A stretch of 64,000 nt of DNA from Parcubacteria bacterium C7867-008 (GTDB lineage Bacteria > Patescibacteriota > Minisyncoccia > Phycocordibacterales > Phycocordibacteraceae), in the NCBI GenBank assembly GCA_001189215.1, contig LFCR01000004.1:22153-86152 (forward strand). Direction: 5' to 3'. The notes under the pieces were generated by a model, which saw only the letters and a program-made list of their open reading frames with translations, had not been told where the DNA came from and did not search any database. Of the stretch, positions 14,975 to 18,690 are shown in pieces. The translations under genes and the position numbers were made by a program. Positions within the stretch are counted from its first letter, which is position 1, and the number at the start of each line of letters is the position of its first letter.

Positions 14975-15032
14975 CTAGACAGAACGCACCACATGTTGCA
15001 GAAGGGTTCCAACATCGTCCCAGACTGCCAGC
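14975..15032 (+). repeat. island repeat R1 (full 58 bp copy)
   Basis: ctagacagaacgcaccacatgttgcagaagggttccaacatcgtcccagactgccagc. Confidence 0.8.
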
Positions 15033-15109
15033 TCGACATCTCATTTTCATATGGTATTTTCCTACTGGAGCTGAGGCTCTTTTGGACCACAGAAAATAGG
15101 AGATATCCC

Positions 15110-15757
15110 ATGGTTGCGACCATGCACGACCGCCGTGTTGCTATAGCTACAGGCACCGCTCGCGTAGATCCATCAAAGCTGGGTGCAGATTACTGGGCGT
15201 TCATCATCCGGCACGCCGCCAGCCGACTTACTATGGACTATCTGCATGGTCTGCAATCGATCGAGCAGATCATAAAGTCGGACGATCAACCCTATGAACG
15301 GTCATACGACCCGTCAGTCTTTCGTATTCCGTTTGATGCCCGTACGAAGGGTATCGTGTGCGCCCGTCTGAAGGATCTGCCTGTTGACGTCGCGAGCTGG
15401 CCTCAAATACCAGCAGACCCAGGCCACGATGCTTTCTATCAGACAGCGACCGAATCAGTCCTTGTTCTTGAACGGCAGCGCAAGGGTTTCGATTTCTGGC
15501 TGCTCAGATCCGAGTGGGAACTCATGGGTCCGGAGGAGATTCGCCCCTGGCTGCGCGGCCGTTCGCTTCATGCGCGGAAGGTAGATTTGGAAGAGATTCT
15601 CCAGGACAATACAGAGCTCGCCTCAAACATATTGTTCACCCTCCTCCGTGCTCAAGAAGAAACGACCGCACGGCTTACGGAAAGATCTCGAGTCTCCCTG
15701 GAACGGGCGTTCGAACTGAAAAATGTTCTGCACGCCACCGGTCATCCAGTGCGCTAG
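15110..15757 (+). CDS. hypothetical protein (215 aa)
   Basis: AGGAGA RBS plus ATG, 78 nt downstream of R1. GC-rich. Followed by a GGGCCG/CGGCCC hairpin. Confidence 0.55.
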   Translation: MVATMHDRRVAIATGTARVDPSKLGADYWAFIIRHAASRLTMDYLHGLQSIEQIIKSDDQPYERSYDPSVFRIPFDARTKGIVCARLKDLPVDVASWPQIPADPGHDAFYQTATESVLVLERQRKGFDFWLLRSEWELMGPEEIRPWLRGRSLHARKVDLEEILQDNTELASNILFTLLRAQEETTARLTERSRVSLERAFELKNVLHATGHPVR

Positions 15758-15799
15758 TTTACGGGCCGTGCCATTAAGGTGCGGCCCAACTCATATCAC

Positions 15800-15830
15800 A
15801 AAGGTTCCAACATCGTCCCAGACTGCCAGC
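15800..15830 (+). repeat. island repeat R2 (right-half copy)
   Basis: aaaggttccaacatcgtcccagactgccagc, lying between convergent gene ends. Confidence 0.8.
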
Positions 15831-15845
15831 AACGAAATAGGAAAA

Positions 15846-15865
15846 GCGACGGTGTTTGCCGTCGC
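15846..15865. terminator. hairpin gcgacgg-tgttt-ccgtcgc, with U-run on the minus strand
   Basis: Perfect 7 bp stem directly downstream of the minus-strand gene 15875..16249. Confidence 0.55.
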
Positions 15866-15874
15866 CTCATCTCC

Positions 15875-16249
15875 TTAGTGCTTTGGAACAATCTGAACAG
15901 CGTCCGCTTCCTTCAGGTGTTTCAGAAAGTGCGTCATCCCATCCCGTACACCAGCGTTCCAGAAGTCGGCGAAGAATACTTCCGCGTCTGTACACATGGC
16001 AGCGAAGTCGTCACCTTTGATCTGAAGATCGTTCAGATCGCAGCGAGTCACCGCCTGAGCTTGAACGAAAAGGCGGACCCCACCATTCCAGCTGTCCTGC
16101 AGGACATGAATTGTATTCTTGCCGTCCTTCAGCAAGGTCAGTCCCTTGATCCTGAGACTGGGCTCGTATACGCCTTCGTAGAGACTTCTCGGGCTATATA
16201 TCGCCCCTTCCGTCTTCGCGAGTTCACGCACGTTGTCTTGGTAGCTCAT
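15875..16249 (-). CDS. hypothetical protein (124 aa)
   Basis: GGGAGGT RBS plus ATG abutting full repeat R3. Terminator after the stop. The overlapping plus-strand ORF 15779..16270 is judged spurious. Confidence 0.55.
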   Translation of the reverse strand: MSYQDNVRELAKTEGAIYSPRSLYEGVYEPSLRIKGLTLLKDGKNTIHVLQDSWNGGVRLFVQAQAVTRCDLNDLQIKGDDFAAMCTDAEVFFADFWNAGVRDGMTHFLKHLKEADAVQIVPKH

Positions 16250-16266
16250 GGATACCTCCCAAATGT

Positions 16267-16324
16267 CTAGACAGAACGTACCATATGTTGCAGAAAGGTT
16301 CCAACATCGTCCCAGACAGCCAGC
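16267..16324 (+). repeat. island repeat R3 (full copy; begins with the perfect palindrome TGTCTAGACA)
   Basis: ctagacagaacgtaccatatgttgcagaaaggttccaacatcgtcccagacagccagc. Confidence 0.8.
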
Positions 16325-16349
16325 TCGAATATAGTGCTAAAATACACAT

Positions 16350-16652
16350 ATGACACCGTGGCTCTCTCAAATCCGCATCAGTGCGGACTTCATGGAAAAA
16401 GAAATCTCAGAAGTGGAACCTTCCGAAGAAATCAAAAGTGAAGTTATAGCGATCTGTCAGAGCATTTCACATATCCTCGACAAACAAGGAGTCGAAGCCG
16501 ATCAGAACGACTTGCTAGAGGCGCTTCAACCGGATCTTGACCGCACGGATGTGCTGATTCAGAAACTCGATTCGCTCCCTGAAAAAAAGATTGCATGGTT
16601 GCTTCTCATAACTCACACGGGAGATATCCTTCACGCGCTTAAGAGTAGGTAA
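16350..16652 (+). CDS. hypothetical acidic protein (100 aa)
   Basis: ORF 26 nt downstream of R3. No strong RBS. Confidence 0.4.
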   Translation: MTPWLSQIRISADFMEKEISEVEPSEEIKSEVIAICQSISHILDKQGVEADQNDLLEALQPDLDRTDVLIQKLDSLPEKKIAWLLLITHTGDILHALKSR

Positions 16653-16662
16653 GGTGCATCAT

Positions 16663-16690
16663 GGTTCCAATATCGTCCCAGATAGCCAGC
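16663..16690 (+). repeat. island repeat R4 (right-half copy, 3 substitutions)
   Basis: ggttccaatatcgtcccagatagccagc. Confidence 0.75.
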
Positions 16691-16746
16691 ACTCATTTAT
16701 CCACCCTCTAAATTTTGAAGACCTGTGAGCGTGCTTAACTTCAGGT

Positions 16747-17043: not shown

Positions 17044-17050
17044 CAGATAT

Positions 17051-17081
17051 AAAGGTTCCAACATCGTCCCAGACAGCCAGC
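17051..17081 (+). repeat. island repeat R5 (right-half copy)
   Basis: aaaggttccaacatcgtcccagacagccagc. Confidence 0.8.
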
Positions 17082-17088
17082 AAACAAA

Positions 17089-17111
17089 ACACCCCCTCAG
17101 GAAGGGGGTGT
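17089..17111. terminator. hairpin acaccccct-cagga-agggggtgt (bidirectional; overlaps the stop of the minus-strand gene)
   Basis: Perfect 9 bp stem. The minus strand is followed by TTTGTTTG. Confidence 0.6.
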
Positions 17112-17672
17112 GAATTCAAAATTTCCTTCGAATTCGAGTATCGTGATAAGAAAATCGCAGAATTGAGCATTGAACTCAAGCATGCTGGCGATGGTCTTCT
17201 GTCCATTTGAGAGAAAAGGGATTGTTTCCGCAGTTCTTTGACAAGTTGCGGCGCCGGTGCGATCACTCTGCGAGCAACGCTTGAGAACCTCAATGATCGC
17301 GGAGTAGTTCTCATCGATAATCAGAAACATCATCTGAACAAGTCCACGCACCTGATCGAAAATCCTCCTGTACTCATCTTCTGTTGAGATCTTGATAAGC
17401 CGTAGCGACTGACTATCTTCCTCGATCTGTGACAGTAAGTCGTTTATAGTGCCTGGCGATTGACTGGGGTCGCCAGACCACGCCTTTTCTTCGCGGAGTT
17501 TTTCTTCTAGGAATTTCGGGTCTGACAGCTGTTGAACCTCGATCCCCATTTCCTGAAGACTCATACTGGCAACGCCAAGCTGTCGTTCGCAGATGCTTTT
17601 CAGCATATCCAAAACGACCAACTTACTAAATCTGGGATTGGTGCCGAAAACCGAATCCATAGAAGCTTCCAC
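17097..17672 (-). CDS. hypothetical acidic protein (191 aa)
   Basis: ORF with its stop inside the terminator hairpin. No motifs recognised. Confidence 0.55.
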   Translation of the reverse strand: MEASMDSVFGTNPRFSKLVVLDMLKSICERQLGVASMSLQEMGIEVQQLSDPKFLEEKLREEKAWSGDPSQSPGTINDLLSQIEEDSQSLRLIKISTEDEYRRIFDQVRGLVQMMFLIIDENYSAIIEVLKRCSQSDRTGAATCQRTAETIPFLSNGQKTIASMLEFNAQFCDFLITILEFEGNFEFTPPS

Positions 17673-17756
17673 AACGTCTCCGATTCTAAAAGAGCTTACC
17701 GCAGAATCACATTTTTATTGAAAATTGTCGATATTAGATAGGGACTCAGGATAAGT

Positions 17757-17788
17757 AAAAGGTTCCAACATCGTCCCAGACTGCCAGT
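17757..17788 (+). repeat. island repeat R6 (right-half copy)
   Basis: aaaaggttccaacatcgtcccagactgccagt. Confidence 0.8.
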
Positions 17789-17823
17789 AAAATTATCTAA
17801 AGATTTTCTGATACAGTAGAGCG

Positions 17824-18114
17824 ATGAGCCGCGTCACAATCGTTGCTATTGTTTCCGCCTTCTGTTTTTTATGTGGAGTAGCTGCCACGGTATATGGACC
17901 CTATGAACAGTCCACGCACGGCGGTTTAATATTTGGAGTTTTGGGTATATCCTGCGTCTTTTTAGGCTTACTTCAGATCTGGTCTGAGCGATTAAAACTT
18001 GGTCAAATACTGATGCTGATTCCAGGCTTTAAAAGCTCGTCATATACATTAATCGGTTTAGGATCTATCTGTATCGGTATAGGAGTGACTGAGATACTTC
18101 TGGTACTTGCCTGA
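17824..18114 (+). CDS. hypothetical integral membrane protein (96 aa)
   Basis: 3 predicted TM helices. Confidence 0.5.
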   Translation: MSRVTIVAIVSAFCFLCGVAATVYGPYEQSTHGGLIFGVLGISCVFLGLLQIWSERLKLGQILMLIPGFKSSSYTLIGLGSICIGIGVTEILLVLA

Positions 18115-18127
18115 ATATAAAAGTTCA

Positions 18128-18159
18128 AATATCGTCCAGGATTGCCAGCATCCAAATTT
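18128..18159 (+). repeat. island repeat R7 (degenerate right-half copy)
   Basis: aaaagttcaaatatcgtccaggattgccagc. Confidence 0.6.
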
Positions 18160-18220
18160 ATAAACAGAAAACAACCGCCTGTGAGAAGCTGGTGGGCGTT
18201 CTCCGAGGCGGGCGTCTTTG

Positions 18221-18622
18221 TCAGGCTGGTTTTTGTAGGTGAACCCCAATGAGGCCCAGTTCATGATTGTCCTTGCCGACATCTTCGAAATCGAAGTCGC
18301 CGGGCACAATGGTCATGACTTCCTGGATTCGGGCTGCGATTGCAGGGAACTGCTTTTGTTCCCCAAACACGACAATAAACGTTGGACCCACCCAGACACG
18401 CTCAATGCCTGCGGTGCCATCGAGCCCTTTGAACAATTCAGGGATTTTCTCACCCTGCCCGTGGAGATATCTCGAGTAGCCGCGAAGAAACTTACCGTCT
18501 CTGAACGAAGCCGTCACTACTTCCCAGACCATTGGAATCTTGTAGACAGGGTCGACGATCTGGAATGCTAGGCGGATACCGCCTGTGCCTTCCGCTCTGC
18601 CGTATAGAACTAATGGTTTCAT
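18221..18622 (-). CDS. hypothetical protein (133 aa)
   Basis: AGGAAGGAAGG RBS plus ATG abutting the degenerate full repeat R8. Confidence 0.55.
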   Translation of the reverse strand: MKPLVLYGRAEGTGGIRLAFQIVDPVYKIPMVWEVVTASFRDGKFLRGYSRYLHGQGEKIPELFKGLDGTAGIERVWVGPTFIVVFGEQKQFPAIAARIQEVMTIVPGDFDFEDVGKDNHELGLIGVHLQKPA

Positions 18623-18640
18623 GTTCGAACCTTCCTTCCT

Positions 18641-18690
18641 CTAGACAAAACCTATCACATGTTGCAAAGGGTTTAAGTCTCGTCCAACCC
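18641..18690 (+). repeat. island repeat R8 (degenerate full copy)
   Basis: ctagacaaaacctatcacatgttgcaaagggtttaagtctcgtccaacc. Confidence 0.55.

Follow-up and report, generated by a model that had tools for sequence, protein, structure and literature searches.

We describe a 28-nt repeat, hereafter the core (C), that punctuates a run of small genes in a stretch of DNA from Parcubacteria bacterium C7867-008. This stretch, which we call the window, is 64 kb long and its numbering is used for all positions that lie in it. Our analysis favors the model, to which we assign a probability of roughly 60%, that the core is the attachment or boundary site of small mobile single-gene cassettes stacked behind landing pads that resemble the 3′ end of tRNA-Gln. 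The model builds on features that can be read directly from the genomes: the repeat array and its architecture, the heads of the arrays, the breakpoints of homology between genomes, the replacement of cassettes between strains and a polarity along the arrays. A first-pass annotation of the window had drawn attention to the repeat as a possible cassette boundary.

A co-oriented repeat behind tRNA-Gln-like heads

In the window the core (GGTTCCAACATCGTCCCAGACWGCCAGC) occurs in six copies with 0–2 mismatches, all on the plus strand, and these are followed by two degenerate copies (Table 1), the last of which is identifiable chiefly by the element on its left side. No match is expected in a shuffled window and no further copies were found in the rest of the 64 kb. 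Successive copies start 798, 494, 366, 391, 707 and 361 nt apart. The eight co-oriented copies of the first-pass annotation are thus borne out, with two corrections. The seventh starts at 18122 and not at 18128, and the statement that every gap in the gene run holds a copy does not stand, as there is none at the junction of the glyoxalase and 81-aa genes (~14690) or at that of the 92-aa and 111-aa genes (~19010). Across the whole family, core positions 2–21 and 23–28 are nearly invariant. The conserved element is slightly longer than 28 nt, with an A at −5, AAA at −3 to −1 and AA at +29/+30, and its edges are sharp.

The core is found well beyond this genome. An exact-pattern scan of one genome per species recovered it in 77 stretches from 37 assemblies, and at least 38 genomes carry the system. 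Cores were then counted at up to 7 mismatches and, after neighbouring blocks were merged, amount to 233 in 70 loci, with 1–23 per assembly. The assemblies that bear them are labelled Patescibacteria, Parcubacteria, Paceibacterota or, probably loosely, Saccharibacteria; their DnaX proteins are a median 66% identical and their housekeeping DNA is 65–78% identical. Relatives with DnaX at most 50% identical have no core within 21 kb, and the same is true of some at 62%; the system therefore appears to be clade-restricted and patchy. Viral contigs were considered as carriers of the core and rejected, since none in the collection of viral contigs contains it, and a DnaX-based scan of metagenomes returned no near-identical strain of the window (best match 71% identity). 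In the open-access papers and bioRxiv preprints that could be searched, a scope that leaves subscription journals outside, we came across no account of the motif or of such cassette arrays in Patescibacteria or built on tRNA fragments, in line with the earlier remark that the sequence matched no family known to have been described.

The arrays begin in a stereotyped way. In the window a co-oriented tRNA-Gln gene lies one unit upstream of the first core, as it does in 18 loci from different genomes. Most other arrays begin one unit past H, a 23-nt copy of the tRNA-Gln 3′ end (RGTTCGATMCCTAGTCTGCCAGC) that is usually followed by AA and is placed beside housekeeping genes. One or the other head, co-oriented with the cores, is present 142–1410 nt upstream in 63 of the 71 arrays with enough upstream sequence, and H never occurs inside these 71 arrays. 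Among 50 copies of H, 19 touch or overlap the stop codon of a gene in the same orientation, and 18 others immediately precede a divergent gene. H recurs at the same positions across genomes, after the genes for an M23 peptidase (five genomes), AlaRS (three) and an HI0933-like flavoprotein (three), and these positions are therefore conserved landing pads. When the core is compared with the tRNA 3′ ends in the loci, the best match is tRNA-Gln with a score of 16, versus 7 or less for the others, and 8 of 5000 shuffles reach 16. The sequence of H is intermediate between the tRNA-Gln end and the core, and all three have in common GGTTC at the 5′ end and CT(G/C)CCAGC followed by AA at the 3′ end. 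In the window, the tRNA-Gln 3′ end is succeeded by the same layout that follows cores: CCCAGC, then AATATT-TGcTATCAT-6 nt-ATG, where the start codon is that of the glyoxalase gene. The first-pass annotation overlooked this anchoring on tRNA-Gln. A conserved leader or attI-like site directly upstream of the first core was also considered and rejected: there is just another gene there, and the true head lies one unit further up.

Within any one array, which can hold up to 14 cores, all cores point the same way, and the sole locus with both orientations consists of two separate arrays. The 154 units between cores have a median length of 508 nt (intervals range from 183 to 1439 nt) and contain one open reading frame (ORF) that fills a median 78% of the unit; units that seem to have two genes often hide a decayed core. 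Many of the products are ORFans, and others belong to the NUDIX, HAD, histidine phosphatase, glyoxalase and serine hydrolase families. Classical mobile elements are scarce in the loci examined. The ORF is co-oriented with the core in 92 units and opposed in 59. Junctions of the ++, −+, +− and −− types number 30, 20, 15 and 13, versus 27, 19, 19 and 13 expected at random, which argues that the core follows the array and not promoters or gene ends. On these grounds we discount the shared operator that had been offered as an alternative to a cassette boundary.

The cassettes appear to carry their own expression signals. An extended −10 promoter is present in 39 of the 92 plus units, with the hexamer mostly 8–10 nt past the core and the ATG 6–7 nt past the box, a spacing that implies leaderless mRNAs. 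Plus genes end close to the next core, with a median of 7 nt between the stop codon and the core. Minus genes have an intrinsic terminator beside their upstream core (two examples from the window are in Table 1) and, on the side of the downstream core, either a canonical TTGACA-17-TATAAT promoter or the element that we call L, the left half of the repeat as first described. A sigma-54 or extracytoplasmic function (ECF)-type promoter within the core itself was rejected by eye on account of unfit spacings.

L is ~31 nt long and directly adjoins the core. Its sequence CTAGACAGAACGYACCAYATGTTGCAGAA matches the window at 14975 and 16267, with a degenerate copy at 18641, and the elements begin at 14974, 16266 and, in the degenerate case, 18640. 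Across genomes there are 33 copies with the consensus TCTRGACAGAACSTASCAYAKRTTGCAKAAA; on the minus strand this reads as an extended −10 promoter, TGsTAsGTT, and then a Shine-Dalgarno leader. To judge from these signals, L is probably a leftward promoter module that is used by some minus cassettes and lies outside the site proper. This would explain why the "full copies" of the first-pass annotation are confined to places with the start of a minus gene on their left. The 58-bp unit of that annotation joins the core to a module that not every site has. The palindromes reported in this half (TGTCTAGACA and ACATGT) are not kept among the 33 left halves in other genomes and are therefore incidental. 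Two further ideas about L were abandoned. L plus C as a diverged copy of tRNA-Gln nt 18–73 was rejected for L, which aligns to tRNA positions 1–49 no better than 26–86% of shuffles. A hairpin between L and the core (ATGTTG/CAACAT) is visible in the window, is no better than in shuffles and is lost elsewhere (for example, GATTGCA).

Core orientation also goes with the presumed leading strand. In 55 of 69 loci the strand that carries the cores has positive GC skew, and 222 large genes run in the direction of the cores against 77 that do not. Integron arrays and single-strand transposons have the same leading-strand bias. The bias could equally stem from heads that lie behind co-oriented housekeeping genes. 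In one contig (LFCQ01000002.1, 64001–80000; merged locus L043+L029), two opposite arrays flank a 4.7-kb block encoding YebC, RuvC and PBP1A. Each has its own outward-facing H head, and dnaN lies just past one of the arrays; the switch in orientation would fit a nearby replication origin.

Three further observations concern variants of the site and of the head. In two related genomes (L022+L033, DJWB01000001.1; L001, JAHJZL010000054.1), many cores have CCCACAC (G19C), often together with ACCCCCAGC, which points to concerted evolution of sites in one lineage or to a site preference peculiar to it. In L049+L051 (JALHOO010000003.1), the core between two cassettes (merged 7178–7196) has an internal deletion that joins GTTCC to AGACTGCCAGCAAT. 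Finally, in some loci one or two 5′-truncated copies of tRNA-Gln (~55 nt, starting near TAGGACAG) lie between tRNA-Gln and the first core (L087, 7773–7943; L002, CAZYDN010000001.1, merged-locus 14285–14460; L019, LFCK01000002.1, 7040–7194). They represent literal partial-tRNA repeats such as integrase-carrying islands leave, and they coexist with the 28-nt cores.

Probable exchange at the cores and the search for a recombinase

Comparisons between genomes place the limits of exchanged DNA at the cores. For six cassette pairs from different genomes, the DNA similarity sets in and breaks off at most a few nt from the cores, and the flanking sequences are not related. The 96-aa cassette of the window and its homologue in C7867-007 (LFCQ01000002.1), for example, share 87% DNA identity with limits that fall exactly at the two cores. 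Two cassette pairs are 84–85% identical, versus 68–78% for the housekeeping DNA of the same genome pairs. Each cassette family keeps a constant orientation relative to the core wherever it is present, and one family follows tRNA-Gln in one genome and H in another, with similarity beginning 4 nt past ...CAGC.

Gene content at fixed sites differs between strains. The hotspot at DnaX and tRNA-Gln could be compared in 15 genomes, where it contains 1–14 cores and largely different genes; the few common families are distal and lineage-specific ones adjoin the tRNA. In genomes with 96%-identical Xer proteins, similarity breaks off 6 nt short of the H 3′ end and returns at the first base of the terminal core. 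Between these breakpoints lie two unrelated units in one strain and, in the other, a lone Trans_reg_C gene. At the same H hotspot, a third relative carries other genes and a fourth none. The cassettes enclosed by the same head and the same terminal core thus vary between related strains. Cores farther from the head have more mismatches (Spearman 0.32, p=1.4e-4; 14 arrays versus 5). Together with the strict co-orientation, the breaks of homology at cores and the turnover at fixed sites strengthen the original suggestion of a cassette boundary or recombination site, from which we infer recombination. Attempts to map crossovers from core polymorphisms in homologous cassette pairs were dropped, as the pairs were few and the signals conflicting.

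We envision site-specific recombination as the process of exchange. A cassette would consist of one gene with its own promoter, its own terminator if it is minus-oriented, and one core, and the array would have the architecture H-[cassette-C]n with either the tRNA-Gln 3′ end or H as the pad. A circular or incoming cassette with one C would recombine with H or with a resident C, and the crossover would fall within the common 3′ segment CT-G/C-CCAGC-AA. H would retain its own 5′ part, leaving the tRNA intact, and the newcomer would supply a new C on the far side. If entry is mostly at the head, older cassettes would be pushed outward, where their cores decay, and such preferential entry could account for both the stratigraphy of the arrays and the distal decay of cores. 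The enzyme would be encoded elsewhere in the genome. The segment CTGCCAGCAA is the part of the site that we would single out for mutants in C × C and H × C exchange.

To see what this enzyme might be, all ORFs from the window and from loci L001–L159 were searched by phmmer and jackhmmer, with IntI1, XerD, lambda Int, Cre and a resolvase as queries. The one tyrosine recombinase gene detected (L007, 4195–5103) is of the XerA/XerD type, with 243.6 bits on NF040815. An XerA/XerD-like protein is encoded by a single gene in these genomes and is 78–100% identical across relatives; its orthologues occupy a fixed housekeeping position beside rpsO, usually with no core nearby. In L007 the gene runs into a core (4168–4197), with its stop codon overlapping the 3′ core edge. 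We rejected this gene as a dedicated integrase, because its orthologues are fixed by rpsO and three of four relatives are coreless within ~6 kb; the remaining one, L163, has a core copy with 5 mismatches upstream of the gene. A variable hotspot occupies the intergenic region between Xer and Exo_endo_phos, where the close relatives L164 and L166 have an H site, and its proximity explains the adjacency of Xer and core in L007. The Xer-like recombinase is nevertheless the only candidate that we saw for an enzyme acting in trans, and we put it forward as that alone.

Several results weigh against mobile cassettes. No array-linked recombinase was found: ~650 kb of array-bearing loci gave the one tyrosine recombinase of L007, and the window gave zero. 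The core is devoid of the dyad symmetry of tyrosine and serine recombinase sites (GGTTCCAACAT matches the reverse complement of AGACTGCCAGC at 5 of 11 positions), and conservation stops directly after the proposed crossover, with no conserved second binding arm visible. The 31-nt conservation of L over unrelated cassettes is not explained by the cassette model either. Three features, namely the missing dyad, the missing second arm and the conservation of L, speak against a tyrosine-recombinase reaction of the textbook kind. Because core orientation also goes with the presumed leading strand, it may reflect a constraint other than insertion polarity. If recombination were efficient, a chromosome with many dispersed co-oriented sites would be prone to deletions. 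We saw no excised circles, empty sites or within-population turnover of cassettes, and exact look-ups with DnaX and two cassette proteins returned only contigs consistent with the window's own arrangement, thus offering no within-population variation to analyse.

Alternative explanations and known systems

The core could instead be a regulatory or insulating element, a site for a transcription factor, a roadblock or a terminator protein, maintained at all gene junctions of accessory regions, with the shuffling of cassettes a by-product of homologous recombination between the conserved 28-nt copies. We consider this unlikely, if less so than the other alternatives. The core lies at a fixed distance of 8–10 nt upstream of many plus-gene extended −10 boxes, where a −35 or an activator site would be, and L together with the 5′ end of the core makes a plausible leftward promoter (TTGGAA-18-TAsGTT). 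The plus-gene stops that crowd the core are mostly without a terminator in the flanks read, the strong conservation of the core across genera implies a binding protein, and such an element would need no linked recombinase, in keeping with the searches. However, core orientation tracks the array and the junction types occur at random frequencies. No promoter abuts the core at convergent junctions (15 of 78), at −− junctions (13 of 78) the core follows no plus-strand gene end, and its distance to the promoters of minus genes varies. A regulatory role also leaves unexplained the heads of 63 of the 71 arrays, the lack of H inside arrays and the decay of cores away from the head. Moreover, homology of 23–28 nt is marginal for RecA-dependent exchange.

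Alternatively, the cores could be inert att remnants of larger integrase-carrying islands that once entered at tRNA-Gln and eroded to single genes, with nothing mobile now. There is precedent for such a history in the tycheposons of Prochlorococcus, in which tandem integration at tRNA genes leaves partial-tRNA repeats and pushes older elements outward (10.1101/2020.12.28.424599). Like tycheposons, the arrays described here are anchored at tRNA 3′ ends, have tRNA-related direct repeats, show outward displacement and decaying remnants, and reside in streamlined genomes with few other mobile elements. They also share one trait of tRNA-integrating islands: in the 18 tRNA-Gln-headed arrays the insert abuts an intact tRNA 3′ end and a related direct repeat lies distally. 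The decay of distal cores, the partial tRNA-Gln duplicates in some loci and the lack of an integrase in the arrays would all be natural outcomes of erosion. Yet scars should copy the tRNA end, whereas the cores of 38 deeply diverged assemblies have in common a 28-nt consensus of their own, set off from the tRNA by two indels. The units are regular, ~500 nt long, and consist of a complete gene with its own promoter, unlike the products of random erosion. In addition, cassettes are more alike between genomes than housekeeping genes are, and content differs between close strains. Tycheposons themselves differ from the arrays in several ways (10.1101/2020.12.28.424599): here the units are ~0.5-kb single genes without integrase or replication module, the repeat is a conserved 28-mer and not a literal partial tRNA, and additional pads lie beside protein-coding housekeeping genes. 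We therefore regard inert scars as an improbable source of the arrays.

That the repeat is a selfish short interspersed element, similar to repetitive extragenic palindromic (REP) sequences and bacterial interspersed mosaic elements (BIMEs), miniature inverted-repeat transposable elements (MITEs) or Correia elements, and transposes into intergenic regions is a very improbable reading, even though the repeat, like such elements, is short, conserved, intergenic and present many times in a genome, at several loci. The core folds at 0 kcal/mol, and cores and full copies on both strands have minimum free energies of 0 to −4.9 (z of −0.6 to +1.3 relative to shuffles). The repeat thus folds no better than shuffles, which excludes attC-like and REP-like sites and upholds the first-pass judgement that it is not obviously a REP. 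A scan of 13000–21000 for inverted repeats found no arms flanking the repeat copies and no terminal inverted repeats, no target duplications were seen at core copies, and Rfam matched only the tRNA over 14100–19500, even at E<=1. Unlike REP/BIME and MITE families, the cores have asymmetric element edges, no palindrome and a head site, are 100% co-oriented within arrays, occur only in H-headed arrays and bound exchangeable genes, with cassette homology that ends at cores in different genomes. Dispersal over the genome had been named as an outcome that would favor a generic repeat, and several arrays per genome do exist. Every one of them, however, consists of a head site and [cassette-core]n, which is not REP-like scatter.

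The arrays also resemble integrons, and a classical integron array without its integrase (a cluster of attC sites lacking integron-integrases, CALIN), with the core as attC, would account for co-oriented sites separated by single small genes of mostly unknown function whose ends lie at or near the site. As in integrons, cassettes are common to genomes as site-bounded modules, sites are homogeneous within a genome and orientation correlates with replication. We nonetheless consider this identification next to untenable. attC sites are imperfect hairpins of 50–150 nt with R″/L″-L′/R′ organisation that are conserved in structure, whereas the site here is 28 nt, unstructured, non-palindromic and conserved in sequence. 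Of the inverted attC core sites RYYYAAC...GTTRRRY, only TTCCAAC (6/7) is present, at the 5′ end of the core, and it has no inverted partner up to +30. There is no adjacent integrase, attI or Pc promoter. The heads are tRNA-Gln or H, with a platform site that imitates a tRNA 3′ end, a genome has several such platforms, and the cassettes have their own promoters and terminators, with ~40% inverted. The lack of a hairpin in the core and of an array-linked integrase together set the arrays apart from integrons, REPs and MITEs.

Elements that exploit Xer recombination, namely the integrative mobile elements exploiting Xer (IMEX) at dif and the pdif modules of Acinetobacter plasmids, provide a different comparison. 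They are small integrase-less modules moved by a housekeeping recombinase, as the cassettes would be, and share with them a 28-nt site and tandem stacking at a chromosomal site. In contrast to these, the core has no 11-6-11 dyad, all sites are co-oriented where pdif sites alternate, the target is tRNA-like and not the dif site of the terminus, and a role for Xer is a guess. Clustered regularly interspaced short palindromic repeats (CRISPR) are 23–50 nt long, a range that includes the 28 nt of the core, but the intervals here are 183–1439 nt and code for genes, unlike CRISPR spacers, which are short and of similar length. Taken together, the arrays resemble integrons and tycheposon-type accretion yet lack the defining traits of both, and of Xer/dif, REP, MITE and CRISPR systems.

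These comparisons raise the possibility, to which we give slightly less than even odds, that the Parcubacteria/Paceibacteria of the candidate phyla radiation (CPR, or Patescibacteria) have a gene-cassette capture system of their own, independent of integrons. Single-gene cassettes without an integrase, each with a 28-nt non-palindromic site, would be captured in one orientation at several chromosomal pads that copy the tRNA-Gln 3′ end. The enzyme would be encoded at another locus, might be the lone Xer-like protein, and would act with a site geometry unlike that of known tyrosine-recombinase core sites. The chance that such exchange relies on a new reaction is substantial. CPR bacteria have tiny genomes and little is known of how they gain and lose genes. 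If cassette capture does occur, a multi-locus platform for the exchange of single genes would explain the location and turnover of strain-specific small proteins in these organisms. It would also represent a second natural solution, besides integrons, to "one gene, one site" capture, using a mimic of a tRNA end and an unstructured 28-nt site. In practice, the H and C motifs are a simple tag for locating the flexible genome in these metagenome-assembled genomes. H and C also form a substrate pair for recombination assays, and might become a genetic tool where almost none exist.

The window locus and minor observations

The array of the window (Table 1) lies between housekeeping genes, with SerRS, Dus, DnaX and tRNA-Gln on one side and VIT1, DUF1295 and an ABC-F protein on the other. 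The ORFs between cores, and likewise the 92-aa and 111-aa ORFans beyond the last core, have no match in Pfam, NCBIfam or PADLOC. These two ORFans may be old cassettes whose cores have vanished. The sole other match to the 215-aa cassette protein among 5.8 billion proteins is one relative with 44% identity.

Table 1. Features of the array and its flanks in the window (C, core; L, left half)
Feature	Position	Strand	Description
tRNA-Gln(ttg) gene	14204–14275	+	Array head/landing pad; ARAGORN and Rfam
Last 23 nt of tRNA-Gln, GGTTCGATCCCTAGTCTCCCAGC	14253–14275	+	Stand where cores stand at all later junctions
First unit	14276–15004		Two convergent genes, glyoxalase-family and 81-aa
Glyoxalase-family gene	14297–14668	+	Predicted leaderless, behind extended −10; Pfam Glyoxalase_2/Glyoxalase
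Terminator-like hairpin	14673–14692		Common to glyoxalase and 81-aa genes
81-aa gene	14708–14953	−	From ORF list
L1	14974–15004		Putative promoter module of 81-aa gene
C1	15005–15032	+	Perfect
Cassette	15033–15802	+	215-aa ORFan 15110–15757; local GC 0.537 vs ~0.46 for window
C2	15803–15830	+	Perfect; flanked by convergent genes
Cassette	15831–16296	−	124-aa gene 15875–16249; intrinsic terminator 15843–15868 beside upstream core
L	16266–16296		TGgTACGTT on minus strand
C3	16297–16324	+	
Cassette	16325–16662	+	100-aa gene 16350–16652; predicted leaderless (TGcTAAAAT, 6 nt, ATG)
C4	16663–16690	+	2 mismatches
Cassette	16691–17053	+	98-aa gene 16747–17043; possible membrane protein, judged by eye
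C5	17054–17081	+	Flanked by convergent genes
Cassette	17082–17760	−	187/191-aa gene 17097–17672; terminator 17089–17111; without left half
C6	17761–17788	+	1 mismatch
Cassette	17789–18121	+	96-aa gene 17824–18114; predicted leaderless, behind TGaTACAGT
C7	18122–18149	+	Degenerate, 6 mismatches
Cassette	18150–18669	−	133-aa gene 18221–18622; degenerate left half 18640–18669
C8	18670–18697	+	Heavily decayed, 14/28 bases match; distal end of recognisable array
Two small ORFans before VIT1	18698–19400		92 aa, 18731–19009 (+); 111 aa, 19018–19353 (−)
VIT1 housekeeping gene	at 19432		Distal flank of array

Other features of the window were noted in passing. A perfect 15-nt inverted match between 13069–13083, in the DnaX coding sequence, and 18708–18722, just past the last degenerate core, is at about chance level for 64 kb. 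Outside the array, the FKBP and TGT genes enclose a 203-aa ORF at 34920–35531 (minus strand), next to which there is neither H nor core. Its GC content is ~0.56–0.60, where the window has ~0.46. The ORF encodes a lipoprotein-like N-terminus (MRTVPILPVVLVALTLSACGT) and has a TTGACA/TATAAC promoter to itself, and no match to it was found in Pfam or Rfam. It looks like a foreign gene gained by another route. A LOOT RNA (RF03000) is present at 49120–49253 on the plus strand, with a score of 61.5 bits that exceeds the gathering score.

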